A DNA stretch of 64,000 nt from Bacteroidales bacterium (GTDB lineage Bacteria; Bacteroidota; Bacteroidia; Bacteroidales; F082), in the NCBI GenBank assembly GCA_017561025.1, contig JAFZDU010000074.1, positions 7,603-71,602 on the forward strand. The letters are read 5' to 3'. The notes under the pieces were generated by a model. The model had not been told where the DNA came from and ran no database searches. It saw only the letters and a program-made list of their open reading frames with translations. Positions 12,987-60,959 of this stretch are shown one piece after another. The position numbers and the translations under genes are program-made. How positions within the stretch are numbered: the first letter of the stretch is position 1; every line of letters starts with the position of its first letter.

Positions 12987-14750
12987 ATGAAAAAATATCT
13001 AGTTATGAGAAAGATTGCATTAGTTACCATGTTGCTGTCAGCCTTAGTGTCTGGCGGTTTGAAAGCTCAGAGTTTCGTATCGACAGAGACACAGAAAAGA
13101 AATGTCCTTCTTGAAGAATATACCGGCAAAAACTGCAGCTGGTGCCCTGAAGGTCAGATGACAGCCAACGCTCTTGTTAGAAACAACCCAGGAAGAGTGT
13201 TCCTCGTTAACATCCATGGCGGTCCTTTTTCTCCAACAACAGATCCTAACCTCAACACCGACGACGGCACCAAAATGGTCGAGGATTACGGCATTACAGC
13301 TTATCCTGCAGGCTTCGTCAACAGAACTTCATTCTATGAAATAGCCCGCGAACAGTGGTCGGCTTATACCATGCGCCAGCTTCAACAAACAGCCGAATGT
13401 AATATTGATGGTCAGGTGATAATAGATCCAGCATCACGCATGGCGACAATAACAGTAGAGATATATTACACTGCAGATAGCAAAGAGTCGTTCAACTACC
13501 TCACAATCGCTATGTTACAAGATAACATCATGGGCGACCAGGCAGGTGGCAGCGCCAACCCAGAACAATATGTCAACGGAGAATATCGTCATATGCATAT
13601 CATGCGCGACATCATAACTCCTACATGGGGCGAGACAATCAGTCCGACAACAGCAGGAACTCTTATCACTAAGACATATTCTTACCCAATACCTCAAGTC
13701 ATAGGCGACCCTTACGGAGTGGAGGCGGTGTTGGAAGATCTCTCATTCGTGGCATTCGTTTCTGAAAGCGACGACGGAATCCAGACATGTCCTGTGCTTA
13801 ACGTCAATGAGTTGATAACAGTAATTGACAATGATGAGAATATTGCTCCTGTAATAAGCAAGGCATATCAAAAGTCAACAATATCATGTTCTGAACAAAA
13901 TGTATTATGCACAAATATCGTCAACGCTGGCAAAGAAGAAATTACCTCCTTATTGATAAAGGTGTCGACGGCAAATAATGAAGATGAATTCTTGTGGGAA
14001 GGCAATCTTCAATCTTATCATGAAATTTTGATTGAAAGCGATATCGACCTTTCAGCAGGTGATGAGGTTACAGTGGAAATTCTCGAGGTGAATGGCGAAG
14101 AATATCATTACGTAAAAACAGCGAAGATGATAATTGGAGAATGGCAGGATATTGAACTTAATGCTGAAGAAGAAACTTTCACTATTGAAGTGGTACAAGA
14201 TAAATACGGAAATCAGATTGAATGGTTCGCCTTGACAGCGGACTATGAAGTATTGGCATCAGGTGGTCCTTATCAGATGCTTTCACAACCTGGAACAGAG
14301 ATGCATCAGGTTGAGTTGACAGTGAAGGGCGGCGACTGCTTCAAGTTCGTCATCACCGATGCTGGCGGAAACGGTATCAGCGGTAACAACGGCGAAGGAT
14401 ATTACAGAATACTCAATTCCAACGGTGATGTCATCGTTGATGGCAGCGGCGACTTTGGTGCAGAAGCATCTCATCTTTTGTCTATAAACTTTAATGGAAC
14501 AAGTATAAATGAAACTGTAGATAATAATGTCAAGATTTATCCTAACCCTACACGTAATGAAGTCATGGTACAATGTGACGGAATGAAGAAGATAAGTCTT
14601 GCAACAGTCAGCGGACAGACTCTCGATGAAATGAATGTCGATGCCGACAAATATACACTCGACATGAGAAGTTACAATCCTGGAGTATATTTCATAAATG
14701 TAACTACAGAAAATAGAAATTTCGTAATTAAAGTCCTCAGAACTAACTAA
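12987..14750 (+). CDS. T9SS-sorted Omp28-like CxxC protein (modules A-B-C-CTD)
   Basis: Signal peptide. LLEEYTGKNCSWCPEG motif and the conserved Y.HMH..R...T..WG..I.PTTAG block. VQDKYGNQIEW module. IYPNPTRNEVMV...GVYFINV C-terminal domain. The -7 box at 12975-12982 suggests the true start is ATG 13005 (MRKIALV). Confidence 0.75.
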   Translation: MKKYLVMRKIALVTMLLSALVSGGLKAQSFVSTETQKRNVLLEEYTGKNCSWCPEGQMTANALVRNNPGRVFLVNIHGGPFSPTTDPNLNTDDGTKMVEDYGITAYPAGFVNRTSFYEIAREQWSAYTMRQLQQTAECNIDGQVIIDPASRMATITVEIYYTADSKESFNYLTIAMLQDNIMGDQAGGSANPEQYVNGEYRHMHIMRDIITPTWGETISPTTAGTLITKTYSYPIPQVIGDPYGVEAVLEDLSFVAFVSESDDGIQTCPVLNVNELITVIDNDENIAPVISKAYQKSTISCSEQNVLCTNIVNAGKEEITSLLIKVSTANNEDEFLWEGNLQSYHEILIESDIDLSAGDEVTVEILEVNGEEYHYVKTAKMIIGEWQDIELNAEEETFTIEVVQDKYGNQIEWFALTADYEVLASGGPYQMLSQPGTEMHQVELTVKGGDCFKFVITDAGGNGISGNNGEGYYRILNSNGDVIVDGSGDFGAEASHLLSINFNGTSINETVDNNVKIYPNPTRNEVMVQCDGMKKISLATVSGQTLDEMNVDADKYTLDMRSYNPGVYFINVTTENRNFVIKVLRTN

Positions 14751-14768: not shown

Positions 14769-16883
14769 ATGAGAAAAAAATCTATCATTTTAGCATTGAT
14801 ATCGATGCTGTTTTTAACTAATAATCTTGTCGCTCAGGATTATGTCTCAACACAACCACAGAAGAGAAAAGCGTTGTTGGAAGAATTTACAGGAAGAAAC
14901 TGCCAGAACTGTCCTATGGGACACATGGTGGCAAACAATTTGGTGATTAACAATCCTGGTAATTTGTATGCAGTCAATGTTCACCTCGGACATTATTCTC
15001 CAACGAGTTACCCTAACTTTAATACGGATATGGGTGATGCTATCTATGGCGCTTTCGATATCACTGCTTATCCTCATGCTATTATAAATCGTACAACATC
15101 TTATAGTTTAAGTCGCGACCAATGGTATATCTATGTTAACGAACAATTGGCGCAGAATGCAGAATGTAACATCGATGGCGAGGTTATGATAGACCCTTCA
15201 ACACGTATGGCAAGCATCAACGTTGAGGTTTATTATACCGCTAACAGCAGTTCCAGCACCAACTATCTCAACATCTATATGTTGCAAGACAGTATCTGGG
15301 GCTCACAGGCTGGAGGTTCCGACAACCCTATGCAATATGAAAACGGATATTATTGCCACATGCATGTGCTTCGCGCTGCCTTGACACCAACATGGGGTGA
15401 TGCCATAAGTCCAACAACAGCGGGAACATTGATAAAGAAGACATATCAATATCAGATTCCACAGACGATAGGTTCTCCTAATGGCGTCGACGTAGACATC
15501 AACAACCTTACTTTCTTGGCATTCGTTACAGAGAAATACGACGGAACTCCAACACGACCAATCCTCAATGTCAAGGATTTGCATACATACCAAGGAACAT
15601 TGCTAAGTGTCTATCCTACTATAACTTCAATAGCACCATCAACAAAATTCCACTGTTCTAATGAAAAAGTCATCTCTGTGTCGGTGTATAATGCTGGCAT
15701 CAATAGCATCACATCAATGGAGATTGAAACTAGAGTCAACAATGGTTCTGTTGTTAAACACACTTGGGAAGGCGTGATACCATCACACGAGACCAAGGAA
15801 GTGGAAATTGAAGTTGAAGTGCCTGCTGGAAGCAGCAATGTAAGAGTCGAGATAGTTAAAGCCAACGACCAAGAGTTTGAGGAAGTTGCTAACACGACTG
15901 TACAGAATGATGGATGGGAAGAGATGGAAATTAACTCTGTTGAGGAGGAAGTCACAATTGAGATTATGCAGGACAAATACGGCAACCAGACCACATGGAA
16001 GCTCTTTGCATCCAATGGAAGTGTCATAACATCAGGCGGTCCTTATTCTATGTTGTCGGGAGCATCAGCAACGCAGTTGCATGAAATAAAGGTGAATATC
16101 TCTGCCGGCGAATGTATCAAGTTCGTCATTGAAGACGTGAACGGCAACGGCATCTGCTGTAACTATGGTGAAGGCTATTACAGAATCATCAATGCTAATG
16201 GCAATGTCGTTCTGGATGGAGACGGTGCTTTCGGAAGCAAGGCTGAGCATATCTTGTCTGTTGTTTATGATGAGATAGAGACAGAAAGTTTAGAGGCTCA
16301 GATTTGTGAAGGTGAGAGCTACACCGAATATGGATTTGAGTTTATTGAGCCAGCAGCTGGAACATATCACGAAACCAATCTTTACAACGGCATGCTTTAC
16401 ATCTTGGATCTCACTGTAGTTGCGAATCCGGTAGTCGTCATTGATGGAGCGACGACAATTGAGATAGGAGAGAGCGTTACCTTGACAGCAAGCGGTGCTG
16501 ATGCATACGTATGGTCTACGGGAGATAGCAGCGTTTCTATAACAGTAACGCCTGAAGAAACAACTACATATACTGTAGTGGGAACAAAAGACGGCTGCGA
16601 AGGAAGCGCCGAAATCACAGTAGAAGTGACAGTTGGTATAGGTGAAAATGAAACAATAGAAGCCAATATCTATCCTAATCCTACAAAAGACGAACTTATG
16701 ATAGAATGTCAAGGAATGAAAGAAATCACAGTCGTAATGCCAAACGGACAAGTCGTTGAGAAAATAAATGTAAGCGATGATAAATATGGGTTGGATATGA
16801 GCGATTACAGGTCAGGAATTTACTATGTGAAGATAATGACAAACGACAATAATGTTAGAGTCTATAAATCGGTAAGGATGTAA
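14769..16883 (+). CDS. T9SS-sorted Omp28-like CxxC protein (modules A-B-C-D-E-CTD)
   Basis: LLEEFTGRNCQNCPMGH, IMQDKYGNQTTW...GNGICCNYGEGYYRI, one ICEGESYTEYGF module, an SGADAYVWSTGDSS Ig-like module and IYPNPTKDELMIEC...GIYYVKI. Lies 18 nt after the previous ORF, so it is probably co-transcribed. Confidence 0.75.
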   Translation: MRKKSIILALISMLFLTNNLVAQDYVSTQPQKRKALLEEFTGRNCQNCPMGHMVANNLVINNPGNLYAVNVHLGHYSPTSYPNFNTDMGDAIYGAFDITAYPHAIINRTTSYSLSRDQWYIYVNEQLAQNAECNIDGEVMIDPSTRMASINVEVYYTANSSSSTNYLNIYMLQDSIWGSQAGGSDNPMQYENGYYCHMHVLRAALTPTWGDAISPTTAGTLIKKTYQYQIPQTIGSPNGVDVDINNLTFLAFVTEKYDGTPTRPILNVKDLHTYQGTLLSVYPTITSIAPSTKFHCSNEKVISVSVYNAGINSITSMEIETRVNNGSVVKHTWEGVIPSHETKEVEIEVEVPAGSSNVRVEIVKANDQEFEEVANTTVQNDGWEEMEINSVEEEVTIEIMQDKYGNQTTWKLFASNGSVITSGGPYSMLSGASATQLHEIKVNISAGECIKFVIEDVNGNGICCNYGEGYYRIINANGNVVLDGDGAFGSKAEHILSVVYDEIETESLEAQICEGESYTEYGFEFIEPAAGTYHETNLYNGMLYILDLTVVANPVVVIDGATTIEIGESVTLTASGADAYVWSTGDSSVSITVTPEETTTYTVVGTKDGCEGSAEITVEVTVGIGENETIEANIYPNPTKDELMIECQGMKEITVVMPNGQVVEKINVSDDKYGLDMSDYRSGIYYVKIMTNDNNVRVYKSVRM

Positions 16884-26075: not shown

Positions 26076-27824
26076 ATGAAAAAGTATTTATTATCTCTTA
26101 TTATCGTACTATTCTCATTAGAACTGCTCAACGCTCAACAATATGTTGTAACAACTCCAACAAATAAGAATGTTCTTCTTGAAGAATATACCGGCAATTA
26201 TTGCACATACTGTCCAAACGGACACCGCATCGCCAATGAATTGGCAGCAAAATATCCTGGTAGAGTGTTCCCTATAAATATCCACGCGGGAAGTTTCGCT
26301 TCTACTAGCTATCCAAACATGACAACAACACAAGGTAACGAATATAATAATAACTTCGGTGTTACATCTTATCCAACAGGTATCCTCAACCGTATGGGTC
26401 AAGTTAGTTATACCCAATGGGAAAATAAGGTGGATGAAATGATGAAGGAAAATGCTATCGTCAACATCGCTGGCGACTATACAATCAACGCTGCAACACG
26501 TACTGTGCAGATCACTGTTGAGATGTATTACACTGGCAATAGCTCTGAATCAACAAACTACCTTACTATCTATATGTTACAAGATGACATCGTAGGTTAT
26601 CAGGCAGGTTCAAATTTAAACCCAACACAAATCGTCGACGGTCAATATAACCACACTCACGTGTTCCGTTCTGCTATCACATCAACATGGGGCGACGCTG
26701 TAAGTCCAACAACAGCAGGTTCTTTGATTACAAAGACTTACACTTACACAATCCCTCAGTCAATAGGCAGTCCTAACGGTGTTGACGTTGACATCAATAA
26801 GGTTTATTTCGTTGCTTTCCTTACAGAAAAAAATGAAGGTAACGTGACACGCCCAGTGCTCAACTCATGCAAACTCGGTGAACCTTCACCTAATATGTAT
26901 GTCGTTGACTTGTGCTACGGCGAAAGCTACACAGAACATGGTTTCAACTATAACAAACCAGCAGCAGGTTATTATGAAGAAATAAAGGAAAACAATGATG
27001 GCAGCTATTCATATTTATATCTCACTGTCTATCCTTCTTACACACGTAACCTCGAAATGGAAATCTGCGAAGGCGAGTCATTCCACTATGGCGCATTCCA
27101 CTTCGACAATCCAGAAGCTGGCGTACATACTCAAGAAAACGTCCTTCAAACTGTTGACGGCTGCGATAGTACAATCGTCATGACATTGACAGTTTATCCT
27201 TCTTATAACATCGAAATCACCGACGAAATCTGCGAAGGCGAAGATTATAAGAAACATGGTTTCAACCTCACAAACCTTTCAGCAGGTATTCATAACAAAA
27301 CACGTGAACTTGAAACAAATTTCGACTGCGATAGTATCGTCAATTTAGTATTGACAGTACATGAGGCACCTGAAGTTACTATTTCAGGCAATACAAACAT
27401 CTATTCAGGTGAAGGCGCAACATTGACAGCAAGCGGCGCTGACTCATATCTCTGGTCAACAGGCGAGACAACAGCTTCTATCACAGTTTATCCTTCTGCA
27501 ACAGCAACATATTCTGTAGTAGGAACAACTAACGGCTGCGACGATGAAGCAGAAGTTACTGTCAACGTAACTGTTGGAGTAGGTGAGAACGAATTGGAAA
27601 ACACTAAGGTTTATCCTAACCCAACAAATGGCGAATTGAAGATCGAATGCCTTGGAATGAGAGAGATTTCAGTCTTCATGCCAAACGGTCAATGTGTTGA
27701 AAATATCTATGTCAACGACGATGCATATACTTTAAACATGAGCGAATATAAGTCTGGCGTTTATTATGTTAAAATAACAACAAAAGACAATGCTGTTAAA
27801 GTATGCAAATCAGTGAAAATGTAA
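26076..27824 (+). CDS. T9SS-sorted Omp28-like CxxC protein (modules A-D-D-D-E-CTD)
   Basis: The ORF track starts at GTG 26046, inside the upstream terminator, so I use ATG 26076 (MKKYLLSLIIVLFSL). LLEEYTGNYCTYCPNGH. Three C.GES(Y/F)..(H/Y)G(F/A) modules. SGADSYLWSTGETT module. VYPNPTNGELKIEC...GVYYVKI. Confidence 0.75.
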   Translation: MKKYLLSLIIVLFSLELLNAQQYVVTTPTNKNVLLEEYTGNYCTYCPNGHRIANELAAKYPGRVFPINIHAGSFASTSYPNMTTTQGNEYNNNFGVTSYPTGILNRMGQVSYTQWENKVDEMMKENAIVNIAGDYTINAATRTVQITVEMYYTGNSSESTNYLTIYMLQDDIVGYQAGSNLNPTQIVDGQYNHTHVFRSAITSTWGDAVSPTTAGSLITKTYTYTIPQSIGSPNGVDVDINKVYFVAFLTEKNEGNVTRPVLNSCKLGEPSPNMYVVDLCYGESYTEHGFNYNKPAAGYYEEIKENNDGSYSYLYLTVYPSYTRNLEMEICEGESFHYGAFHFDNPEAGVHTQENVLQTVDGCDSTIVMTLTVYPSYNIEITDEICEGEDYKKHGFNLTNLSAGIHNKTRELETNFDCDSIVNLVLTVHEAPEVTISGNTNIYSGEGATLTASGADSYLWSTGETTASITVYPSATATYSVVGTTNGCDDEAEVTVNVTVGVGENELENTKVYPNPTNGELKIECLGMREISVFMPNGQCVENIYVNDDAYTLNMSEYKSGVYYVKITTKDNAVKVCKSVKM

Positions 27825-35419: not shown

Positions 35420-36992
35420 AAACAAGGTCTCAACTAAAAGTGCTGCCGAGCAACTGAATGTCTCTGTTGTAAGTATTCATAACTGGATTAAGGAAGGTAT
35501 CCTGAAAACCACCGACAATCGCATAACTCAGGAATCTCTCGAAGAGTTTAAGAGAGAGTATCTCAATAATAACAAACTTTCAGCTCGCGCGAACAAGCAA
35601 TATAAAGAGTCGCACAATCATAAGTCGTTGACAGAAGAGATAAAGAAAGATCTGAAGTCTTCTATGTCGGGCGACGAACTTTCTACAAAATACGAGTCTT
35701 CATTATCAGATTCATATAAAAATAAAGAAGGAATTTATTACACGCCTCAATATATAGTTGAGGATATGTTAAAATCTATTGACATTACGGAAGACAAAAT
35801 CTTCTTGGATCCTTGTTGTGGTTCGGGTAACTTCATCATAGAGGCTATAAGAAAAGGTGTCTCTCCAGAGAATGTCTATGGCTTTGATACTGATGAGAAT
35901 GCTGTCGCAATAACAAAGAAACGCATTAAAGAAATAAGCGGTTACGAAAGCAAAAATATCATCTGTGGAGACTTCTTAAACCAACAGCCAACAATCAACG
36001 GTCAACAGTTCGATTATATTTTTACAAATCCGCCTTGGGGAAAGAAAATCAATAAGGTGGATAAAATCAGATATTCTTCTTTATATAATTCAGGAAATAG
36101 CACCGACACATCGGCATTGTTTTACTTTGCCTGTTTGAATGTGTTAAAAAAAGATGGCAAGATTGGAATGTTATTACCTGATTCATTCTTTAACATAAGT
36201 TCGTTTGAAAACGCTCGTAAGTCGTTGATGACATTACAGATAAATCGTTTCGTCGATTATGGCAATGCATTCAAAGGACTGATGACCAAGGCGATGGCAT
36301 TTGTAGCTACAAATGGCGAATGGCAAAAGTCTGATGACAAAAGCTTTATAGAATGCGTGATTTATAATGTTAATAAACATTTACGTTCGCAGGAGAGTTT
36401 TGGTGATATACCTAAATGTATCTTTAATTTTCATATTGAAGAAAGTGAAAGCGATATAATACGTCGTGTATTTTCTGTGCCGCATATCAGGTTGAAAGAC
36501 AATGCGAAGTGGGGACTAGGTGTCATTACGGGAAACAACGAGAAAATCTGTAGGAAAGAGAAAGCCGTTGGTTGTGTTCCAATATATAGAGGTAAGGATA
36601 TTATGAAGAATGCCTTGGCAGAACCATCATTGTTTATAGATGAAAATCTAGAAGGATGTCGTCAGGTCGCAGACATGGAGTTGTATAAAGCTTCGGAGAA
36701 AGTGATATATCGTTTTATCTCTAATAAGATAGTCTGTTTTTATGATACAGAACAGCGATATATTTTAAACAGTGCAAACCTTTTTGTCTTGAATGAAGAT
36801 TTTCCAATATCATATTCGCAATTGGTTGATCTTTTGAATTCCGATTTCATGAACTGGCTTTTCAGAAGTATCTTCAATACGCACAAAATACTACGCGGCG
36901 ACTTGGAGTCATTGCCTATCTTTCACGAGTATTTTAAGAAATACGAAACCTTTTCTGAAGAAACTTTGAAGATGTATCTCTCTATCTTGTAG
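35412..36992 (+). CDS. Stand-alone gamma-class N6-adenine DNA methyltransferase (TaqI/Eco57I-like) with N-terminal HTH
   Basis: Motif I LDPCCGSGNFI precedes motif IV FTNPPWGKK. TaqI_C-like C-terminal half (IYRGKDIMKN). N-terminal LNVSVVSIHNWIKEGIL helix-turn-helix. No endonuclease gene on either side. Confidence 0.75.
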   Translation: MKLNKVSTKSAAEQLNVSVVSIHNWIKEGILKTTDNRITQESLEEFKREYLNNNKLSARANKQYKESHNHKSLTEEIKKDLKSSMSGDELSTKYESSLSDSYKNKEGIYYTPQYIVEDMLKSIDITEDKIFLDPCCGSGNFIIEAIRKGVSPENVYGFDTDENAVAITKKRIKEISGYESKNIICGDFLNQQPTINGQQFDYIFTNPPWGKKINKVDKIRYSSLYNSGNSTDTSALFYFACLNVLKKDGKIGMLLPDSFFNISSFENARKSLMTLQINRFVDYGNAFKGLMTKAMAFVATNGEWQKSDDKSFIECVIYNVNKHLRSQESFGDIPKCIFNFHIEESESDIIRRVFSVPHIRLKDNAKWGLGVITGNNEKICRKEKAVGCVPIYRGKDIMKNALAEPSLFIDENLEGCRQVADMELYKASEKVIYRFISNKIVCFYDTEQRYILNSANLFVLNEDFPISYSQLVDLLNSDFMNWLFRSIFNTHKILRGDLESLPIFHEYFKKYETFSEETLKMYLSIL

Positions 36993-46149: not shown

Positions 46150-46157
46150 TATTTTTG
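46150..46157 (+). promoter_or_regulatory. -7 box TATTTTTG for 46215-47972
   Basis: Exact match 58 nt upstream of the ATG. Confidence 0.45.
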
Positions 46158-46214: not shown

Positions 46215-47972
46215 ATGAAAAAATTTACTTTCTTAATGTGTGCAGTATTGGCTTGCTTACTTCAAGTTAATGCACAACAATTCGTTTCTACAGAAGTACA
46301 AAATAGAAACGCAATGATCGAAGAATTTACAGGAAGAAACTGCGGTTACTGTCCAGACGGTCACGTTATCGCTAACTCAATCGTTCATGCTAACCCAGGT
46401 AGAGTATGGGCAGTTAACGTTCACGCAGGTGGATACGCTCCAACATCATACCCTAACTTCAACACAGGCGTTAGTACAACAATCTGCAACGGTTTCCAAG
46501 TAACAGGTTTCCCAGCTGGCGTTGTTAACCGTTCAACAGCACAAGCTCAAGGCCGTGGTTCATGGCAATCATTAACAAACCAACAACTTTCACAAGTTGC
46601 TGAATGTAACGTAGCTGGTCAAGTTGTTATTAACCCTGTAACACGTCTCGCAAAAATCACTGTTGAGGTTTACTATACAGCTAACAGCGCTTCAGATAAA
46701 AACTACCTCACAATATATATGTTGCAAGACAGTATCTGGGGTTCACAATCAGGCGGCAGCTCAAACCCTGAACAATATGTAGGTGGTAACTACTGCCACA
46801 TGCACATCCTCCGCGATGCTATCACAGCTGACTGGGGTGATGAAATTGCTCCAACAACAGCAGGTACTTTAATCACAAAAGAATACGTTTACGAAATCCC
46901 AGCTTCAATCGGTTCACCAAACGGCGTTGAAGTTGACCTCGAAAATATTGCATTCCTCGCTTTTGTAGAAGAAAAACAACAAGGCGCAACATACCGTCCT
47001 ATTCTCAACGTTAACGAATTAACAATGACACAAGGTACAGAAGAAGCTATCTATCCAATCATCGCTAACGTAGCAGCAGCTTCAGGTTTCTCATGTTCAA
47101 CAACAAGAACTTTAAAACTCGACCTCGTTAATGGCGGTTTAGATGAATTGACATCTCTCAAATATCAAGTTAAAGTTGCTGACAACGAGCCAATCGAATT
47201 CACATGGGAAGGCAGCATCGCTTCATACCAAAGCTCATCAATCGAAGTCGATGTTGAAATTCCTTTCGGTTCACACGATGTTGAAGTTAAGATCGTTGAA
47301 GCTAACGGTACAGCATACGAATTTGCTAAAGAAGCTACAATCAAGAGCGAAGAATGGGTAAATGTTGCTATCGAAGGTGAAACAGAAGAACTTTCAATCG
47401 AAATTATGCAAGATAAATACGGCAACCAAATCACATGGCAACTCCTTGCTTCAGACAACACAGTTATCGCTGAAGGCGGTCCTTACCAAATGTTAGTCGG
47501 TGGTTCAGCTGCTACACAATTACACATCCAAAAAGCTACAGTTAACAAAGGTGACTGCGTTAAATTCGTTATCAAAGACAACGTAGGTAACGGTATCTGC
47601 TGCAGCTTCGGTGAAGGTTACTACCAAATCAAAGACAGCAAAGACAATATCGTTGTTGATGGCGACGGCGACTTCGGTTCAGAAGCATCAGCATTATTGT
47701 CAATCGGTGATGGCGTTGCTGTTGAAGAAATTGAAACAGTTGAAACATTAAATATCTTCCCTAACCCTGTAAAAGACGTTCTTACAGTTAAAGGTGAAAA
47801 CATGAGCCAAGTTGTTATCTGCAACGCTTTAGGTCAAGTTGTTGAATCAATCAACACAAACGACAGCGAAGTTAGAGTTAACGTAAGCGCATTCCAAAAC
47901 GGTATGTATTTCATCAACGTTATCGATAACAACGGTGTTATGACAACAACAAAAGTATCAGTTTTACATTGA
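46215..47972 (+). CDS. T9SS-sorted Omp28-like CxxC protein (modules A-B-C-CTD)
   Basis: MIEEFTGRNCGYCPDGH, IMQDKYGNQITW...GNGICCSFGEGYYQI and IFPNPVKDVLTV...GMYFINV. Confidence 0.78.
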   Translation: MKKFTFLMCAVLACLLQVNAQQFVSTEVQNRNAMIEEFTGRNCGYCPDGHVIANSIVHANPGRVWAVNVHAGGYAPTSYPNFNTGVSTTICNGFQVTGFPAGVVNRSTAQAQGRGSWQSLTNQQLSQVAECNVAGQVVINPVTRLAKITVEVYYTANSASDKNYLTIYMLQDSIWGSQSGGSSNPEQYVGGNYCHMHILRDAITADWGDEIAPTTAGTLITKEYVYEIPASIGSPNGVEVDLENIAFLAFVEEKQQGATYRPILNVNELTMTQGTEEAIYPIIANVAAASGFSCSTTRTLKLDLVNGGLDELTSLKYQVKVADNEPIEFTWEGSIASYQSSSIEVDVEIPFGSHDVEVKIVEANGTAYEFAKEATIKSEEWVNVAIEGETEELSIEIMQDKYGNQITWQLLASDNTVIAEGGPYQMLVGGSAATQLHIQKATVNKGDCVKFVIKDNVGNGICCSFGEGYYQIKDSKDNIVVDGDGDFGSEASALLSIGDGVAVEEIETVETLNIFPNPVKDVLTVKGENMSQVVICNALGQVVESINTNDSEVRVNVSAFQNGMYFINVIDNNGVMTTTKVSVLH

Positions 47973-47992
47973 TATTTCCATAAATAAATAAT

Positions 47993-48025
47993 GAGACGTT
48001 GCTTTTAGCAGCGTCTCTTTTTTTT
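47993..48025 (+). terminator. Intrinsic terminator after 46215-47972 (GAGACGU-stem family)
   Basis: GAGACGTTGC-TTTTA-GCAGCGTCTC (one U-G) followed by T8. Confidence 0.8.
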
Positions 48026-48044
48026 CATAATAAATCTAAACCAA

Positions 48045-51000
48045 ATGAAAAAACTTACTTTCTTAATGCTGACTGTCTTAGTTTGCTTGTTGCAAGTCAA
48101 TGCTCAGCAGTTCGTTTCTACAGAAGTACAAAATAGAAACGCTATCATTGAAGAATTCACAGGAAGAAATTGCGGATACTGCCCTGATGGTCACGTTATC
48201 GCTAACTCAATCGTTCACGCTAACCCAGGTAGAGTATGGGCAGTTAATGTCCATGCCGGCGGTTACGCTCCAACATCTTATCCTAACTTCAATACAGATG
48301 TCACCAATACTATCATGAACGGTTTTAGTGTTACCAGTTTCCCTTCAGGCGTTGTTAACCGTTCAACGGCAACAGCTCAAGGTCGCGGTTCATGGCAATC
48401 ATTAACAACACAGCAACTTTCTCAAACAGCAGAATGTAACGTTGGCGGTCAAGCTATCATCAATCCTCTTACACGCACAGCAAAGATCAACGTTGAAGTA
48501 TATTATACATCAAACAGCGCTTCTTCAACAAACTATCTCACAATAGTTATGTTGCAAGATAGTATCTGGGGCTCACAGTCAGGCGGCAGCTCAAACCCTG
48601 ATCAATATGTAGGTGGTCAATATTGCCACATGCACATCCTCCGCGATGCAATCACTGCTGACTGGGGCGACCAAATCTCTCCAACAACAGCAGGTACTTT
48701 GATCTCAAAAGAATATATGTACCAAATCCCTGAATCAATAGGTTCTCCTAATGGTGTTGCAGTCGACCTCGATAATATCATTTTCTTAGCTTATGTATCA
48801 GAAAAATATCAAGGAACACCAACACGTGCTATCCTCAACGTAAACGAGTTGAACACAATGCAAGGCTCAGAAGAAGACTTGTATCCTTATATCACAAACG
48901 TAGCTCCAACAACATCTATCTCATGTTCAACAACAAAGACAATGAAGATAGATTTAGTCAACGGCGGTTTGCAAACTCTTACATCATTGAAGTTACAAGC
49001 AAAGGTTGGTAATTCACAACCTGTTGAATTCGATTGGAATGGTAATGTTCCTTCTTATGGATTGTTCTCAATTGAAAAAGATCTCAACGTTCCTTTCGGA
49101 TCACATATCGTAGAAGTTAAAATCATTCAAGCAAACGGCACTGCATTCGAGTTTTCAAAAGAAACAGTAATCGATAGCGAAGAATGGACTGAAGTTCAAA
49201 TCGATGGCGAGAAAGAAGAACTCACAATCAATATCATGCAAGATAAATATGGCAACCAAACCACATGGGAACTCATTGCATCAGACTACAGCGTTATCGC
49301 TTCTGGTGGACCTTACACAATGTTGGTAGGCGGTTCAACAGCAACACAATTACATACTGAAAAAGCAACAGTAAATAGCGGCGACTGTGTCAAATTCGTT
49401 ATTAAAGACAATATTGGCAATGGCATCTGCTGCCAATACGGTGAAGGCTACTATCAAATCAAAGATAGCAAAGGTAACATACTTGTTGATGGCGACGGCG
49501 CATTCGGTTCAGAAGCATCTGTTCTTTTGTCAATCCAAGGTAATGATGACGGAGAAGACGATGGTGATGATGATGACGATGACAACAACGGCGAAGTTAA
49601 CGCAGATTATGTTTCAACAACACCACAAAACAGAAACCTTCTCATCGAAGAGTTCACAGGAAGAAACTGTCCTAACTGCCCAGCAGGTCATATCATCTCA
49701 AGCGGCATCACACATGACAATCCTGGAAGAGCATGGAGCATGGGTATCCACTCAGGTTATTTCGCTGTGACAACATATCCTAACTTCAATACAGATATCA
49801 GTGCTATCTTCACTGATCCTTACGATGATGTTCAAGGCGGTCTCGGTTATCCTGCTGCTGTTTTGAACCGTTCAACAGAAGAAGCATTGGGAAGAGGCTA
49901 CTGGGAAGCAGCTGCTGCTGAACAACTCCAAATCGCTGCTGAATGTAATGTAGGCGGTCATGTCACTATCGACCCTATCACTCGCAAGGCTTATATCACA
50001 ACAGAAGTTTACTACACAGCAAACAGCGCTGAGTCAACAAACTATCTCACTATCGTTATGTTGCAAGATAGTATCGCTGGTCAGCAAGCATACGGTCATA
50101 CTAACCCTGCTCAAGATCTCGGCGATGACATGTATTGCCACATGCACGTCCTCCGCGATGTCGTTACTTCTTCATGGGGTGATGCTATAACTCCTACAAC
50201 AGAAGGTTCTTTGGTTAAGAAGACTTACGAATATAGCATTCCAGAAATCATCGGCGACCCTAACGGCGTGACCGTTGATTTGGATAATATCTACTTCATC
50301 GCTTTTGTTACTGAGAAATATCAAGGCATGCCAACACGTCCAATCTTGAATGTTAACAAATTATCACAAGAACAATCGACAGGCATGGCAGTGTCACCTT
50401 ATATCTCAGACCTCGTAATGGAAGAAGGCGTATTCTGCGCTAACTCAAGAACATTCAAAAACTACGTTAAGAACGTCGGTTCTTCAGCACTCACATCAAT
50501 GAAGTTTGAAGTTAAAACTGCTGACGGTAATGTAGTTGAACATTCATGGGAAGGCAACATCGCTCCCGATGCAACAGAACGTATCGACATCACTTTAGAT
50601 ATTCCTTTCGGCAACAACGAAATAGATTTCAATATCGTTGAGGCTAACGCTCAATCTCATGACTATACTAAATCTGTTATGGCTCTCTGCGATGAATGGG
50701 ATGAATATGATACAGGTTGTATAGAAGAAATACCATTGACAATTGAAATCATGCAAGATAAATATGGTAACCATACAACATGGGAGTTCATGTCATCAGA
50801 TAACACAGTCTTAGCTTCAGGCGGTCCTTACAGCTATTTGCCTAACGCTAATTCAGAATTACATACTTACACAGTTAATGTTATGGAAGACTGTTATAAA
50901 TTCGTTATTTATGACAGCTATGGCAATGGTATCTGCTGCGGTGAAGATGGCGACGGATATTACAGAATCCTTGACGAAGGCGGCAATATCGTCGTCGATG

Positions 51001-51308
51001 GTAACGGCGAATTCGAAGACATCGCTTACAGCATTCTTTCAGTCAAGACATCAGGATCTGTTAACGATGTGATTGCATCTGCATATAATATTTATCCTAA
51101 CCCAGCAAAAGATATGATAACAGTGAAAGGTGCAAATATGAGCCAAATCAAGGTTTACAATGCCTTAGGTCAGATGGTTAAAGCTATAGACTGCGACGCA
51201 AATGAAATGAATATCAGTGTTAATAACTTGCAAAATGGAATCTATTTCATCAATATCACAAATGATAAAGGTGAAATGACAACGAGCAAAGTCTCAATTC
51301 AACATTGA
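48045..51308 (+). CDS. T9SS-sorted fusion of two Omp28-like units (A-B-C-acidic linker-A-B-C-CTD)
   Basis: First unit is ~85% identical to 46215-47972 at its N-terminus. Linker GNDDGEDDGDDDDDDNNGE. Second unit restarts at YVSTTPQNRNLLIEEFTGRNCPNCPAGH with no signal peptide. Single C-terminal domain IYPNPAKDMITV...GIYFINI. Confidence 0.8.
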   Translation: MKKLTFLMLTVLVCLLQVNAQQFVSTEVQNRNAIIEEFTGRNCGYCPDGHVIANSIVHANPGRVWAVNVHAGGYAPTSYPNFNTDVTNTIMNGFSVTSFPSGVVNRSTATAQGRGSWQSLTTQQLSQTAECNVGGQAIINPLTRTAKINVEVYYTSNSASSTNYLTIVMLQDSIWGSQSGGSSNPDQYVGGQYCHMHILRDAITADWGDQISPTTAGTLISKEYMYQIPESIGSPNGVAVDLDNIIFLAYVSEKYQGTPTRAILNVNELNTMQGSEEDLYPYITNVAPTTSISCSTTKTMKIDLVNGGLQTLTSLKLQAKVGNSQPVEFDWNGNVPSYGLFSIEKDLNVPFGSHIVEVKIIQANGTAFEFSKETVIDSEEWTEVQIDGEKEELTINIMQDKYGNQTTWELIASDYSVIASGGPYTMLVGGSTATQLHTEKATVNSGDCVKFVIKDNIGNGICCQYGEGYYQIKDSKGNILVDGDGAFGSEASVLLSIQGNDDGEDDGDDDDDDNNGEVNADYVSTTPQNRNLLIEEFTGRNCPNCPAGHIISSGITHDNPGRAWSMGIHSGYFAVTTYPNFNTDISAIFTDPYDDVQGGLGYPAAVLNRSTEEALGRGYWEAAAAEQLQIAAECNVGGHVTIDPITRKAYITTEVYYTANSAESTNYLTIVMLQDSIAGQQAYGHTNPAQDLGDDMYCHMHVLRDVVTSSWGDAITPTTEGSLVKKTYEYSIPEIIGDPNGVTVDLDNIYFIAFVTEKYQGMPTRPILNVNKLSQEQSTGMAVSPYISDLVMEEGVFCANSRTFKNYVKNVGSSALTSMKFEVKTADGNVVEHSWEGNIAPDATERIDITLDIPFGNNEIDFNIVEANAQSHDYTKSVMALCDEWDEYDTGCIEEIPLTIEIMQDKYGNHTTWEFMSSDNTVLASGGPYSYLPNANSELHTYTVNVMEDCYKFVIYDSYGNGICCGEDGDGYYRILDEGGNIVVDGNGEFEDIAYSILSVKTSGSVNDVIASAYNIYPNPAKDMITVKGANMSQIKVYNALGQMVKAIDCDANEMNISVNNLQNGIYFINITNDKGEMTTSKVSIQH

Positions 51309-51334
51309 TTTATGACGAAAGTCTAAAGACAAAA

Positions 51335-51367
51335 GGCTAAAGGTTTTCCCGACCTTTAGCCTTTTTT
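51335..51367 (+). terminator. Intrinsic terminator after 48045-51308
   Basis: GGCTAAAGGT/ACCTTTAGCC perfect 10-bp stem followed by T6. The 5' arm continues the word run at 51321-51343. Confidence 0.8.
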
Positions 51368-56094: not shown

Positions 56095-58557
56095 TTATTT
56101 GTTAAAGATGAGATTCATGGTTTCGGTGTCGATGGTGAACTCTCCGAATTGTTTGAGAGTCTTTTCTCCGATAAGCCAATCTGTTCTCAAATTGTTATAT
56201 ACTCTTACTTTTACATTTTTCACTGAACGGTTTGCAATCCACATCTCTTTGATGATGAACTCTGCTCTGTCGGCAACAGCGCCAATGGTGATGATTCTCT
56301 CTATGTTCTCACCAATGAAGTCGTCTTTTGTGATGACGCCGTCGTTCAACATCTTCATGACTTTTTTCTGTGATACTCCAAATTCGAAGTCTTTGTCGTA
56401 TGTTATATTTTCTGTATATGCATTGACTGTAGCCTTGAATGATATATATCCTTGTTTGTCCACTGCAATGGATACTTTGTTGTCGTCAGGTCTCATGTTG
56501 ACATTGGCCATCTGTTCGTCGCTGATGTTCTCGCGTGGTATATAGTCTTTGCTGATGACTCTGAATTCTGTTCTACGATTCAGTTGATGTGCAAATTCTT
56601 TCAACTCGTCGTTTGATAAGTTCTTGATATAATCTTCTGTGAGAGTTGTTCCTGCTTTGATAGTGAATCCGTTGAATGTATAGTCTTTATGCAATGTTCT
56701 TGGCACGCGTTCTCCATATCCTTTTGCAGTGAGACGGAATGGGTCAATACCTCTGATGACGAGATAGTCGCATACTGACTGGGCACGTCTTTGTGATAAG
56801 ATATCGTTCTTTTCGTGAGTGTCGCGGCTATCGGTATGTGAGCCTAATTCAATTGCGATGCTTGGGTTGACTTGTAACAATTCAATGAGTCCTCTGAGTG
56901 AGTCTTCAAACTGCGGTCTTAATTCCCATTTTGACAATTCGTACAAGATATCAGGAAGTACGATAGGCATATCTGGAATTACGCTAATCTCATAATCCTT
57001 ATTGAAGTCTCTGCTGAACTCCAGTCCTACAGTGCTGATAGTGTCTGTGAAACTGAAGAAGTTTTTCTTTTCAATGCTAAGGATATATATGTTGTTAGCT
57101 TTTATCTGTGTGTTGGTGAACAAGAATGCTCCTTTTTCACTACTGTTGGTTGTGAAGTTTGAGCCATCTGAGCCGCTTACTTTTACTGTTGCACCTTCAA
57201 CATATTGGAGGCTGTTTTGGTTCTTGATGGTTCCGCTGATGGTGAATAGGACAGGAGGTTCGATGAAATAGTATATGTCGTCATCGAGTCCGTTTTTCAC
57301 GTCTCTGTTGCTGATGAAGAAACCTCTTTCTTCTGACGGATGGAATGTGATTCCATAATCATTGCCAATAGAATTTATTGGTGATTTGAGGTTTACTGGA
57401 GCTGACCATTCTCCTAATGAGTCTAATGTAGTGACGTAGATGTCGAGTCCGCCCATTCCGCCATGACCGTTAGAAGCGAAATATAGAGTGCTGTCGTTTC
57501 TCATATATGGATAGAGTTCGTCACCTTCAGTGTTGATGATTTCGCCTATGTTTCTAGGACGGCCGAATTTTTCTGAAGTGCTTTCTCTTTCTGACATCCA
57601 GATGTCTTTTCCGCCTATTCCGCCTTTACGTTCTGAAGCGAAGAAGAGTTTTAATTCGTCGCTCGATAATGTTGGGTGCCCTACGACATCGAGACTGTCG
57701 ATGGTTGTTATTTCCACTGCTACAGGTTCGCTCCATGCGCTACCTGTGCGTGATGACTTCATAATCTGGCAGCCTGATTCTCTTTTCTTATGATTTGGAC
57801 AACGTGTGAAATACATTGTCGAGAAGTTCTTGTTCATGAAAGGAGTTCCTTCGCTGCCTGTTGAGTTGATTCCTTCTTCGTCGGCCAATACAGCTTCTTC
57901 CCATTCGCCTTGTTTGTTCATTCTTGCGATGTAGAAGTCTGCGAAGCTTTGGCCTGTGATAGCGTCTTTTTCTTTAGAGACGCCGCCTTCTCTTGTTGAA
58001 GAGAATATCACTTCATTGTAATTGTTTGAGACCCATGCCACGCCGAATTCAGCTGCTTTAGAGTTGATTTTCTTCAGTCGTGTCACTTCATATTTTGAAG
58101 GAAATTCTATCCATTCTTTGATATATTGCATGTCTTCCAATGCAGCGAAGCCTCTTGGGTCGTCAGGAACTAATTCGTTGTATATTGTATAGTATTCTGC
58201 AGCCAATTCATATTTCTGGTTTCTTTTCAGTACGTCGGCATAGTTGAGGTATACTATAGGGTTTTCTTTAGGGAATTCAGTTCTGAGTAATCTCTTGTAT
58301 TGTGACTCTGCAAGTTTTGGAGCTTCTGTGAGTCGGTAGCATTCTGCAAGACGGTAGGTGATATGGATACGATCTTCTTCGTATTTTTTCTTTCCTGTCT
58401 TTTTGTATGCTTTTTTATATCTTTCTATTGCAACATTGTATTGTTTGCGTTCGAATGCTATGTCGGCAGATTTGCTAGGGCTTTTACGTTGAGCGCAAAC
58501 AGGTTCTGCGGCACCTAAAACAATGACTATGAGTATGAGAAATAATTTCTTTAACAT
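56095..58557 (-). CDS. OmpA family protein with TPR, TolB-like beta-propeller repeats and a C-terminal extension
   Basis: Signal peptide, TPR-like N-terminus and repeated ELYPYMRNDSTLYFASN-type propeller blades. OmpA_C motif ELGSHTDSRDTHEKNDILSQRRAQSVCDYL. About 170 extra C-terminal residues. Confidence 0.75.
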   Translation of the reverse strand: MLKKLFLILIVIVLGAAEPVCAQRKSPSKSADIAFERKQYNVAIERYKKAYKKTGKKKYEEDRIHITYRLAECYRLTEAPKLAESQYKRLLRTEFPKENPIVYLNYADVLKRNQKYELAAEYYTIYNELVPDDPRGFAALEDMQYIKEWIEFPSKYEVTRLKKINSKAAEFGVAWVSNNYNEVIFSSTREGGVSKEKDAITGQSFADFYIARMNKQGEWEEAVLADEEGINSTGSEGTPFMNKNFSTMYFTRCPNHKKRESGCQIMKSSRTGSAWSEPVAVEITTIDSLDVVGHPTLSSDELKLFFASERKGGIGGKDIWMSERESTSEKFGRPRNIGEIINTEGDELYPYMRNDSTLYFASNGHGGMGGLDIYVTTLDSLGEWSAPVNLKSPINSIGNDYGITFHPSEERGFFISNRDVKNGLDDDIYYFIEPPVLFTISGTIKNQNSLQYVEGATVKVSGSDGSNFTTNSSEKGAFLFTNTQIKANNIYILSIEKKNFFSFTDTISTVGLEFSRDFNKDYEISVIPDMPIVLPDILYELSKWELRPQFEDSLRGLIELLQVNPSIAIELGSHTDSRDTHEKNDILSQRRAQSVCDYLVIRGIDPFRLTAKGYGERVPRTLHKDYTFNGFTIKAGTTLTEDYIKNLSNDELKEFAHQLNRRTEFRVISKDYIPRENISDEQMANVNMRPDDNKVSIAVDKQGYISFKATVNAYTENITYDKDFEFGVSQKKVMKMLNDGVITKDDFIGENIERIITIGAVADRAEFIIKEMWIANRSVKNVKVRVYNNLRTDWLIGEKTLKQFGEFTIDTETMNLIFNK

Positions 58558-58704: not shown

Positions 58705-58734
58705 ATATAAAAGAGGCGTCATTTGACGCCTCTT
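58705..58734 (-). terminator. Terminator hairpin spanning the stop codon of 58719-59270
   Basis: AAGAGGCGTCA/TGACGCCTCTT 11-bp palindrome. On the minus strand it is followed by TTTATATT. One arm encodes the last residues (RGV). Confidence 0.55.
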
Positions 58735-59270
58735 ACAACCATGCCTATAGTTATACTATGAATGTTTAGTATGTTACAATCTTTTAATGGTAAAGAGTAA
58801 TTGTAATGCAATCGTATCATCCAGATATCATTTCTCTTTGATTTTTTATTGTTTAGAAATTCTAAATCAACATTTACCCCAATTGAAGATATGGGAGTGC
58901 TTTTCAAATTATAGTCATTACTATGATTCATAATGCCGAATCCTAATAATGGTGTAATTTGTAAAATACTTTTGTCAGTTAGATTGTAACCGGTCAGTAT
59001 GCCATAATTGAACATAGTGTTTTTTGAGTTCCATCCACCTTGACTATAAAGAGAAGTTTGTATTCGATTGTGATATAAATCTATACCCCATTTACAATTT
59101 CCATAACTATTGATGTTGTTAGTGGAGAATTCTTTGCTGATGCTGATTCCTCCTGAAATAGATGTTCCGAAACACCATTTTGAATGTGAAGGTGATTCTT
59201 GACCTATACATAAATTTGCATAAGTCAACTGCATAACAAAAACTAGAAGTAATAAATTAATTTTTTTCAT
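58719..59270 (-). CDS. Hypothetical secreted protein, possible small outer-membrane beta-barrel
   Basis: 183 aa with a signal peptide (MKKINLLLLVFVMQLTYA), alternating aromatic/Gly-rich strands and a C-terminal hydrophobic strand. No family recognised. Confidence 0.4.
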   Translation of the reverse strand: MKKINLLLLVFVMQLTYANLCIGQESPSHSKWCFGTSISGGISISKEFSTNNINSYGNCKWGIDLYHNRIQTSLYSQGGWNSKNTMFNYGILTGYNLTDKSILQITPLLGFGIMNHSNDYNLKSTPISSIGVNVDLEFLNNKKSKRNDIWMIRLHYNYSLPLKDCNILNIHSITIGMVVRGVK

Positions 59271-59385: not shown

Positions 59386-60939
59386 TTATATAAGTCCTTC
59401 TTTGAGGCTATTTTGCATGAAATCAATCAGCTTATTGTTATTGAGTGATTCTTTAAGTTTACTTGTTACTCTCTTGCGACGACTTACAATGCCTTGATAT
59501 GATAATGATAGTAATCCTGCTTTTTGAATTTCTGTCAAAGGAAGAATGGAAATGAAGCAATAATCAAGTTCGATACTGCTCATGTCTGAATGCTTTGATG
59601 TGAATTTGTGTGTGAAGTCATTGAATATGGAATCTATAGTTGTTTTATACATGCTAATTTCAGTAGTAGTAAGTGGATTCTTAAAATACATTATACTGTC
59701 TCCCATCAAATCTTTGTTGTTATCGCATCTTTCTATAATTGATATAACTATCTCTGTTTCTTGAAATGCTTTCCATTTTTCTAAATACAAAGTGTTGGTT
59801 ACTTCCTCGCAATTTGATGCCTTATTTTTTATAGCATTAAGTTTTATTGTTACAACAATGACAATTACTATTATTACAAAAATACATATAGGTTGAGCAC
59901 TTTTTTTATTGCTTTCAATCTTTATTTTGTTTGTTAGATAATTGTCGTATGTCTTTGATATTTCTGAATTTTGGATTTTAAGATCTAAATACGTTCTTTG
60001 GATTTCACGATGCAAGCTCGCATATTTAGCAGATTCTTTTTCATTACCTAATTCTTTATAAATTTCAGCTAAACCTTCTGCTGCATCTCTTTGATCAAAT
60101 AAATCTGGTGAGCGGAATGCTTCCAGAGCATAATACAAAGCAGAGTCATATTCTTTTTCTGCATAATATGCATAAGCAGCAGCCCTATTCATGGAATAGT
60201 ATATGGATGTATATTTAGGCACATTTTGTAGTGCTTTGTTTCGAAGTATTAAGGCTGAGTCTTGTTTGTGAATTGACCTATAATAATATGATAAACAGTA
60301 ATAATAGTAGGCTTTTTCATAAGATTGTTCTGGAAACTTGGATAGATAATTTTCGGCTGTCTTTATGTAATATAAATTAGTATCCGGATTGTTCCCGTTT
60401 TTGTCAAGCATATCACAAAAACTTCCTAATGTCAAATATTCAACTGCCAAGTGCGATGAGTCGTTACACTCATGAAATTCATTTATACATTCCAATAATA
60501 AATCGAAAGATTTATTGAAATGCTCAGATAAAAGAAATAATGATGAAATTTTCTTATATATTAAACCTGTCAAATAGTGTTTCTTTATATCATAGTATTG
60601 ACTGTTTATATTATCTAATGTTTTTAAAGATATAACATAATTGTTCATGGCATTATTATAATCTAAATTTGCAGCATTTATACTGCCTAAAATATGGTAA
60701 GACCTGGCTTTGTTCCATTTTATTTCTAGATCATTATGAATTATGTCGAGAGAGTCAAAATAATTTGCCACATGTAAGATTGCTGAATCATTGTAAATTT
60801 GATGCCAACTATTTAATAGCTGTTCGTGCATGTCAATAACTATTTCATATTGTGTTTTATAATCTAATGTGTTATCATCTGTAGTGACATCATATGTTGT
60901 TATCAATGATAGTATTAACAAGATTAAAGTAGTTTGCAT
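59386..60939 (-). CDS. TPR-repeat membrane protein, possible DUF6377-like regulator
   Basis: N-terminal hydrophobic segment, TPR-like Y/A-rich repeats, a central TM (ICIFVIIVIVIVVTI) and a C-terminal ~130 aa with a weak HTH-like segment (LTEIQKAGLLSLSYQGIVSRRKRVTSKL). Start moved to ATG 60939 because a TACATTTG box sits at 60960-60967. Confidence 0.4.
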   Translation of the reverse strand: MQTTLILLILSLITTYDVTTDDNTLDYKTQYEIVIDMHEQLLNSWHQIYNDSAILHVANYFDSLDIIHNDLEIKWNKARSYHILGSINAANLDYNNAMNNYVISLKTLDNINSQYYDIKKHYLTGLIYKKISSLFLLSEHFNKSFDLLLECINEFHECNDSSHLAVEYLTLGSFCDMLDKNGNNPDTNLYYIKTAENYLSKFPEQSYEKAYYYYCLSYYYRSIHKQDSALILRNKALQNVPKYTSIYYSMNRAAAYAYYAEKEYDSALYYALEAFRSPDLFDQRDAAEGLAEIYKELGNEKESAKYASLHREIQRTYLDLKIQNSEISKTYDNYLTNKIKIESNKKSAQPICIFVIIVIVIVVTIKLNAIKNKASNCEEVTNTLYLEKWKAFQETEIVISIIERCDNNKDLMGDSIMYFKNPLTTTEISMYKTTIDSIFNDFTHKFTSKHSDMSSIELDYCFISILPLTEIQKAGLLSLSYQGIVSRRKRVTSKLKESLNNNKLIDFMQNSLKEGLI

Positions 60940-60959
60940 AATTATTATGGTTAACAATG

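Follow-up and report, generated by a model that had tools for sequence, protein, structure and literature searches.

A 64-kb stretch of contig JAFZDU010000074.1 from a Bacteroidales bacterium (hereafter the window) contains five genes, all on the forward strand and beginning at positions 12987, 14769, 26076, 46215 and 48045, whose products carry between them six copies of an approximately 250-residue domain with a CxxC motif, here termed module A. These proteins are members of the Omp28/HBP35 superfamily, of the subfamily that NCBI labels 'Omp28-related outer membrane protein', and all five have the hallmarks of type IX secretion system (T9SS) cargo. Module A is predicted to combine a thioredoxin-like fold with an Omp28-type β-sandwich. 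The explanation that we favor for the set as a whole, with a probability of about 0.62, is that module A performs thiol-disulfide exchange on extracellular proteins or on proteins of the producing cell's own surface. The window proteins are ordinary, well-preserved members of an already catalogued and poorly studied family, and we found almost no literature on 'Omp28-related' proteins. Below, proteins are named after the start of their genes, and residue numbers are those of p46215.

Family assignment and predicted fold of module A

The open reading frames (ORFs) of the window were program-made calls, and the modules were delineated with hidden Markov models (HMMs) built from the window proteins and their homologues, together with pairwise BLAST comparisons. 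Exactly six stretches of the window match the signature E[ED][FY]TGxxCxxCP. A sequence-only reading of this DNA had proposed six copies of module A in five ORFs with the layouts given in Table 1, and the motif search, BLAST and the module HMMs all reproduced this picture. The consensus strings of that reading are right overall, with small departures: p46215 reads MIEEF rather than (L/I)(L/I)EEF, p12987 has CPEGQ in place of the form ending in GH, plus GDPYGVEAVLEDL, p48045-C has PTTEG and GDPNGV, and the middle D copy of p26046 (the third protein read from an upstream start) is degenerate (CEGESFHYGAF).

All five proteins exceed the gathering cut-off of the Pfam Omp28 model PF11551 (34.9 bits), with scores of 73.9, 141.4 (two stretches of p48045), 77.2, 78.7 and 100.0 bits and E-values of 2e-20 to 3e-41. 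This agrees with the NCBI name of homologues at 70–87% identity and upholds the Omp28 assignment of the earlier reading. PF11551 covers only the sandwich half of module A (residues ~92–257), whereas the partial matches to two NCBI models, NF033782 and NF045500, span the CxxC region. On NF033782 the four single-copy proteins score 95–138 bits, below the cut-off of 150; the double-headed p48045 reaches 171.5 bits as a sum over two stretches, as against 317 bits for an Omp28 of the Porphyromonas gingivalis type. All five have signal peptides of the signal peptidase I type ending in A|Q, with no lipobox cysteine, whereas classic Omp28 lipoproteins show SCD or ACD there. As they fall below the NF033782 cut-off and have no lipobox, they are not Omp28 lipoproteins proper. 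Nor do they belong to the selenoprotein family NF045500, on which they score 25–57 bits against a cut-off of 200. The relationship to the P. gingivalis Omp28 lipoprotein (PDB: 2r2c) is nevertheless extensive: module A aligns to positions 19–236 of NF033782, nearly the whole profile, and the two have in common the E[ED][FY]TGxxCxxCP motif, an IHxG strand, a proline loop and a YxHxHxxR signature. The lipoprotein differs in its size (~290 residues), lipobox cysteine, want of a C-terminal sorting domain (CTD) and of extra domains, and association with a TlpA-like/DUF6029 gene cassette described below.

An AlphaFold2 (AF2) model of the 585-residue p46215, computed from 41 sequences, has a mean predicted local distance difference test score (pLDDT) of 85. 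In it the signal peptide forms a helix (2–15) followed by low pLDDT at 16–19. The predicted order of elements in the first half of module A is strand 33–39, C43xxC46 at the start of helix 46–59, strand 64–70, helix 85–93, P100, strand 101–104 and helix 114–125, the fourth strand being represented by a bridge only. Hence helix 1 of the model has the CxxC at its N-terminal end and strand 3 is preceded by a conserved proline, as in the thioredoxin fold, and a conserved glutamate lies six residues upstream of the CxxC. An all-β domain follows (131–273, the PF11551 region), and then the sandwiches of modules B and C, a disordered linker and the CTD.

Foldseek searches of the PDB with this model returned HBP35 of P. 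gingivalis (5y1a; E 2e-12, TM score 0.59) as the top match, and this 35-kDa haemin-binding protein is the best structural counterpart of module A. Second came the thioredoxin-like AGR_C_4864 of Agrobacterium (2axo), which aligns over the whole of module A (TM score 0.63 over 222 residues) at 9% identity and without any sequence-level match; we take it to be a DUF1223 protein with an ELFTSxGCSSCP-type motif. The remaining matches were generic multi-immunoglobulin (Ig) structures. A profile of 30 diverse module A sequences recovered Omp28 2r2c at E 2e-15 and also matched HBP35 (E 2.8e-9), whose CGYCP falls in register; phmmer and profile alignments likewise place the CxxC on C48/C51 of HBP35. 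Against the archaeal thioredoxin of Methanocaldococcus jannaschii (1fo5) the same profile gave E 0.035, and hhalign matched E. coli thioredoxin at E 3e-5 (probability 73%), setting C32, C35, D26 and cis-Pro76 of TrxA against C43, C46, E37 and P100. Module A resembles these thioredoxins in the CxxC at the helix start, the buried acid six residues upstream and the cis-Pro loop, all in register; it differs in the fusion of the fold to a β-sandwich, in the weak sequence signal and in the bridge-only fourth strand of the model. The sequence-only reading had made its proposal hinge on a thioredoxin-like fold around the CxxC and on the conservation of both cysteines in the wider family. The AF2 topology, the HBP35 match and the TrxA register speak for the predicted fold, and the cysteines are taken up next.

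Conservation of the CxxC motif and its selenocysteine variants

An exhaustive search for relatives of module A recovered 3952 clusters (at 50% identity), and conservation was computed from the best 149 of these representatives, which are 35–70% identical. Both cysteines of the CxxC are present in ~94% of the 149, and they are among only 29 columns conserved at 90% or more. The other highly conserved columns include E36, T39, G40, P47, H50, H70, P100, N105, R106, Y193, H195, H197 and R200, with Y193, H195, H197 and R200 at 91–97%. Beyond this set, a search with the 2r2c sequence brought up 29 classic Omp28 lipoproteins of full length, the P. gingivalis type among them, and all 29 carry E[ED][FY]TGxxCxNCP. 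YxHxHxxR recurs in 2r2c (NYEHNHVLR) and in HBP35 (YLHQH). The proposal of the sequence-only reading has withstood both of its own refuting conditions, on the predicted fold and on the cysteines. A structural disulfide between C131 and C194 was also considered; the two co-occur weakly in the representatives (odds ratio 3.2, p 0.02, uncorrected for phylogeny), and we do not claim it.

A scan of metagenomes for E[DE][FY]TGxx-TGA-xxCP, with TGA at the position of the first cysteine, yielded at least 127 matches in at least 120 stretches. Among the 127 listed matches, 113 also match the module A model once a sense codon is assumed at the TGA, and the reading frames of these relatives are mostly open across the whole stretch examined. 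One that was tested scored 603 bits on NF045500 'Omp28-related selenoprotein' (cut-off 200), alongside weak thioredoxin-type matches. The NF045500 proteins thus have the same module with the first cysteine of the CxxC specified by an in-frame TGA (UPYCPSAS); they differ in being mostly marine, ~380 residues long, cassette-associated and provided with another C-terminal extension. No TGA occurs at this position in the window or its close relatives, where all 133 of 133 motifs (the window and loci L001–L083) use cysteine codons. A protein of the T9SS type with an A-CTD layout was, by contrast, encountered on another metagenome contig (L167, position 409 onward): it has 355 residues, reads ILEEFTGTG-U-IGCPGGH and retains H50, H70, P100 and YxHxHxxR, and would be a selenocysteine-bearing T9SS cargo. 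An exchange of selenocysteine and cysteine in the leading position of a CxxC commonly identifies a residue that acts in redox catalysis. Together with the conservation of the CxxC, it argues for a redox-active site in module A.

Genomic associations outside the window point in the same direction. Flanking DNA sufficed for four distant members of the lipoprotein type, and in all four the gene follows those for a TlpA-like periplasmic redoxin (signal peptide, WCKPC) and a DUF6029 protein, in the order redoxin, DUF6029, Omp28 lipoprotein (CxNC). The DUF6029 protein, a putative outer-membrane barrel, ends in phenylalanine and has a conserved CxGGVCR; a resemblance of the domain to the Wzi outer-membrane barrel has been noted (PMC9603273). 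In the 120 listed selenoprotein loci, the partner HMMs detected the TlpA-like protein in 29, DUF6029 in 34 and both in 23. We found no published description of this cassette. Its distribution across the branches suggests that the superfamily is tied to envelope thiol chemistry and that the subfamily of the window is deployed without the cassette. Some relatives of 1700–2400 residues (P0130, P0133, P0145) combine module A with Peptidase_S8, with Peptidase_C10 and its Inhibitor_I69 prodomain, or with BNR repeats, and several of these giant fusions have CxxD in place of CxxC.

Export and proposed function

The T9SS CTD is above the gathering cut-off in all five proteins (PF18962, 36.8–58.9 bits against 27; TIGR04183, 28.2–47.5 bits against 23; Por_Secre_tail E-values 5e-9 to 6e-16), and each has an N-terminal Sec signal. 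They accordingly have the features of T9SS type A cargo, as the sequence-only reading had stated. The window encodes nine CTD-bearing proteins in total and one component of the T9SS machinery, a PorE-like protein; the order TPR, PD40, CarboxypepD_reg, OmpA is the one reported for PorE (PMC12773672). The presence of this gene implies that the organism has the secretion system needed by these cargoes. The standard plan of T9SS cargo consists of a functional domain, one or more Ig-like domains and the CTD (PMC7712824). That a CxxC thioredoxin-like domain should be unusual on a T9SS substrate, as had been supposed, is contradicted by HBP35, a T9SS cargo of P. gingivalis with a CTD, which reduces insulin faster than E. 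coli thioredoxin and is inactivated by the C48S/C51S substitutions (PMC2907840). HBP35 is like the window proteins in its signal peptide, N-terminal CxxC (CGYCP, with the very dipeptide of p46215), YxHxH sandwich and CTD. It differs in its low identity (~18%), in a score below the Pfam Omp28 threshold, in the absence of H50 and of modules B to E, and in being a single gene of a haem auxotroph as opposed to a five-gene array.

The mechanism that we propose is as follows. The five paralogous cargoes of this herbivore-gut Bacteroidales, a relative of Candidatus Limimorpha, would be exported by Sec; they would then be recognized through the CTD and, by analogy with other T9SS type A cargo, cleaved and anchored at the cell surface. 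Module A would be the working part, made up of the thioredoxin-like half and the Omp28 β-sandwich with its YxHxHxxR patch. It would carry out thiol-disulfide exchange with extracellular or surface proteins, an activity shown in vitro for HBP35, with C43 as the attacking residue, and the YxHxHxxR sandwich may provide the binding site for substrate or for a ligand, haem for example. The remaining modules (B to E) could serve as β-sandwich spacers or binding domains that keep module A off the membrane. The reducing power could, speculatively, come from environmental thiols or sulfide in the strongly reduced gut.

Several observations tell against thiol-disulfide exchange. No Pfam thioredoxin-clan model matches the five proteins at E<=0.01 and a TraF-like model gives E 0.008 in one paralogue only, so that the assignment of the fold rests on the model, on HBP35 and on a moderate profile signal. 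A relation to the TlpA-like redoxin profile was rejected, the hhalign match being in the right register yet not significant (E 0.07, probability 0.8%). One or both cysteines are lost (CxxD, SxxD) in eight of the 149 representatives (~5%), and module A can therefore persist without the pair. The TlpA-like and DUF6029 HMMs found nothing in the window and a single TlpA-like match in the 79 related T9SS-type loci, and no reductant or partner gene was seen near the five genes in the window. The measured activity in the superfamily is that of HBP35 only, which lies outside the T9SS-type subfamily of the window. Finally, the conserved H50, H70, H195 and H197 would fit metal or haem binding too. This last point leads to an alternative that we regard as unlikely, in which module A mainly binds a ligand (haem, porphyrin or metal) coordinated by the CxxC and these four histidines, and the paralogues are surface scavengers. 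Haemin binding by HBP35 survives in a 27-kDa form without the thioredoxin motif (PMC2907840), which points to the sandwich half, the part in which Omp28, HBP35 and module A all keep YxHxH; the position of H50, four residues after the second cysteine (CxxCPxGH), also suits coordination. Most lipoprotein and selenoprotein relatives, however, lack H50 (CPAA, CPSAS) yet retain the C/UxxC; selenocysteine at the first position is typical of redox catalysis, and the reductase activity of HBP35 requires its cysteines. Haem binding and redox activity are, moreover, not mutually exclusive.

Less likely again is that the proteins are adhesins or components of a surface coat, with module A as a folded head stabilized by a CxxC disulfide and the diversity of B to E directed at plant or host surfaces. 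The loss of the cysteines in some relatives and the location of the genes among large T9SS Cleaved_Adhesin proteins (2955 and 1249 residues) would suit such a role, and module C has weak structural matches to lectins, carbohydrate-binding modules (CBMs) and cleaved adhesins. These matches are not significant (best E 2e-3), however, and the CxxC, the upstream acid and the proline are among the best conserved columns while B and C can be exchanged for other modules; a selenocysteine variant comes at a high cost, and selenocysteine is not known to serve as a structural residue. A very improbable reading, finally, likens the five proteins to 00502 of Paraprevotella clara, a T9SS cargo that captures trypsin on the cell surface and promotes its autolysis (PMC9477747). 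Like them, 00502 is a T9SS-dependent, surface-anchored protein of a gut Bacteroidales with multiple Ig-like domains, and it bears the same NCBI/Prokka name (PMC9477747). Its layout is different, being described as a WD40 propeller with five Ig-like domains in ~1260 residues, and neither the EEFTG nor the YxHxH signature of module A appears in the published 00502 peptides; a search with an 80-residue stretch rebuilt from these peptides returned only a 96-residue fragment.

A wider proposal, which we offer as a tentative and rather doubtful one, is that the Omp28 superfamily constitutes an unrecognized thiol/selenol redox system of the outer membrane and cell surface of Bacteroidota. The lipoprotein and selenoprotein forms would be wired to the TlpA-like redoxin through the DUF6029 barrel, and the T9SS forms would display the same head on stalks. 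The universality of the C/UxxC, the TlpA-like/DUF6029 neighborhood and the C10/S8 fusions give reason to treat Omp28-type proteins as surface redox enzymes and not as generic antigens. If so, the battery of paralogues in Limimorpha-like bacteria would be extracellular disulfide reductases that open disulfide-rich dietary or host proteins for degradation, with protease inhibitors, trypsin-like enzymes and haemoproteins as candidate targets. The extracellular disulfide chemistry of strict anaerobes has been little studied. The locus itself embodies no new principle and no new kind of system: within a known superfamily its interest is modest, though it gives experiments a good way into an understudied family. 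What it offers is a natural set of variants (single head, double head, alternative stalks) with which to test the module.

Domain architectures and the origin of the array

The exact 585-residue p46215 protein is present on ENA metagenome contigs. The nearest genomes are Bacteroidales metagenome-assembled genomes (MAGs) of gut origin (yak, deer, horse and buffalo); several bear the name Candidatus Limimorpha, and the highest identity over module A is 94%. In the 79 related genome loci, A-B-C-CTD occurs 78 times, A-CTD 8, A-B-C-A-B-C-CTD 7, A-B-C-D-E-CTD 6 and A-D-D-D-E-CTD 3 times; among distant representatives module A is found in roughly 97 distinct layouts. The modular shuffling pointed out earlier is therefore real as regards the layouts themselves but is not peculiar to this genome: the same five recur in related MAGs, and hence they are old and conserved and do not reflect a recent event here. 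The array probably arose by tandem duplication, domain replacement (B-C versus D-D-D-E) and in-frame fusion of neighboring genes.

The 1087-residue p48045 provides the example of fusion. Its first 497 residues are 77% identical to p46215, and its two halves are ~50% identical to each other. In the closest MAGs (L005 and L006) a gene of its own, complete with signal peptide (MKRIF...QINAQQYVST), encodes the downstream unit, and L011 and L016 have one gene for each unit, both with a CTD. The separate occurrence of the two units in these relatives shows p48045 to be a fusion of two neighboring genes; the fused A-B-C-A-B-C form is also seen in more distant MAGs. Where the first unit would have its CTD and the second its signal peptide, p48045 has the acidic linker, which ends in ...EVNAD; its 'VNAD' looks like a remnant of the end of a signal peptide.

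For the third gene the mechanical start is a GTG at 26046, and an ATG lies at 26076 (MKKYLL...). We prefer the latter because the N-terminus it gives lines up with the other signal peptides. In the printed sequence a terminator-like hairpin of the preceding gene (2955 residues) is visible by eye just upstream of 26076.

Modules B to E

Module B had been called Ig-like, and the AF2 model, in which it is a β-sandwich, bears this out. Module C, modeled alone, is an eight-strand sandwich with a pLDDT of 89. It has no meaningful Pfam match (eight of 17 members give sub-threshold DUF1508, the others noise) and no match among PDB sequences, and its best Foldseek match is MmpS5 (E 2e-3). Most copies have a vicinal cysteine pair in the motif GNGICC (47592–47606, residues 460–464 of p46215); p12987 has GNGISG instead, and some homologues have GNGINN or GNGITS. 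Module D is a cysteine-bearing repeat of ~50 residues and module E an Ig-like domain with SGADxYxWSTG; neither is matched by a Pfam model.

Table 1. Positions of the genes, domains, motifs and signals discussed in the text (window coordinates unless a locus is named).
Feature	Position	Strand	Evidence
Paralogue p12987, 587 aa, A-B-C-CTD (CxxC 13134-13145; motif end CPEGQ)	12987..14750	+	module HMMs
Paralogue p14769, 704 aa, A-B-C-D-E-CTD (CxxC 14901-14912)	14769..16883	+	module HMMs
Paralogue p26076 (also 26046), 582 aa from ATG, A-D-D-D-E-CTD (CxxC 26202-26213)	26076..27824	+	module HMMs
Gene p46215, 585 aa: signal peptide, A-B-C, T9SS type A CTD	46215..47972	+	Pfam, module HMMs, AF2
p46215 Sec signal peptide, ending VNA|QQ, mature N-terminal Gln	46215..46274	+	sequence; model
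p46215 module A (aa 21-272): thioredoxin-like half ~aa 30-125, Omp28 β-sandwich ~aa 130-272	46275..47030	+	
p46215 C43-G-Y-C46 motif	46341..46352	+	
p46215 YCHMHILR (YxHxHxxR signature, in Omp28 β-sandwich)	46791..46814	+	
p46215 module B, Ig-like β-sandwich (aa 276-381)	47040..47357	+	AF2, HMM
p46215 module C, eight-strand β-sandwich (aa 384-498), with GNGICC vicinal cysteines	47364..47708	+	
p46215 T9SS type A CTD	47748..47969	+	PF18962 48.8 bits, TIGR04183 42.8 bits
Gene p48045, 1087 aa: signal peptide, A-B-C, acidic linker, A-B-C, CTD	48045..51308	+	module HMMs
p48045 first module A (CxxC 48171-48182)	48105..48809	+	
p48045 first B (48870-49190) and first C (49191-49538)	48870..49538	+	module HMMs
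p48045 acidic linker GNDDGEDDGDDDDDDNNGEVNAD	49539..49607	+	
p48045 second module A (CxxC 49668-49679; YCHMHVLR 50133-50156)	49605..50321	+	
p48045 second B (50388-50699) and second C (50724-51047)	50388..51047	+	module HMMs
p48045 T9SS type A CTD	51084..51305	+	PF18962 58.9 bits
TATTTTTG, TAnnTTTG match, 58 nt upstream of p46215 ATG	46150..46157	+	background 0.56 matches/kb on strand
Terminator-like hairpin, 11-bp stem then T8, between p46215 and p48045	47993..48017	+	
Terminator-like hairpin, 15-bp stem, after p48045	51331..51365	+	
PorE-like T9SS component, 820 aa, TPR, PD40 (WD40-like), CarboxypepD_reg, OmpA	56095..58557	-	Pfam domains
TlpA-like/DUF6029/Omp28 cassettes outside the window (in L204-L212)	e.g. 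L205:3729-6885, L207:3725-6825, L210:2671-5876, L212:2789-5834		

Transcription signals and neighboring genes

The -7 promoter consensus of Bacteroides is TAnnTTTG, and the match upstream of p46215 is no more than suggestive of a promoter, given the background rate. No such box lies within 150 nt upstream of the p48045 ATG, and the strong hairpin between the two genes ends 27 nt (48018–48044) before that codon. A sigma-70 promoter scan, ill-suited to Bacteroidota, found 12 sites compared to 15.4 in shuffled controls and was set aside.

The neighbors of the 46215–51308 pair encode a class IV aminotransferase, an ion channel, a bPH domain protein and orotidine monophosphate (OMP) decarboxylase; being unrelated housekeeping genes without functional link, they were rejected as a clue to function. 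The first three Omp28-like paralogues alternate on the same strand with two giant T9SS cargoes of the Cleaved_Adhesin/choice-of-anchor J type, at 17146–26013 (+, 2955 residues) and 28031–31780 (+, 1249 residues). Two tandem proteins of ~390 residues, at 5758–6930 (-) and 7098–8273 (-), match Pfam in their T9SS sorting domain only and add to the uncharacterized cargo. Three genes at 8482–12729 (+), immediately before the first Omp28-like gene, encode a flavoprotein of the NuoF type, the large subunit of an [FeFe] hydrogenase and a 2Fe-2S protein of the NuoE type, a set that looks like a trimeric, possibly electron-bifurcating, hydrogenase. The ORFs at 58719–59270 (-, 183 residues), 59386–60957 (-, 523 residues) and 34253–35377 (+, 374 residues) have no Pfam match at E<=0.001. 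The 526-residue product of 35412–36992 (+), with helix-turn-helix (HTH), N6_Mtase, Eco57I and TaqI_C domains, fits a type IIG-like restriction-modification methyltransferase.

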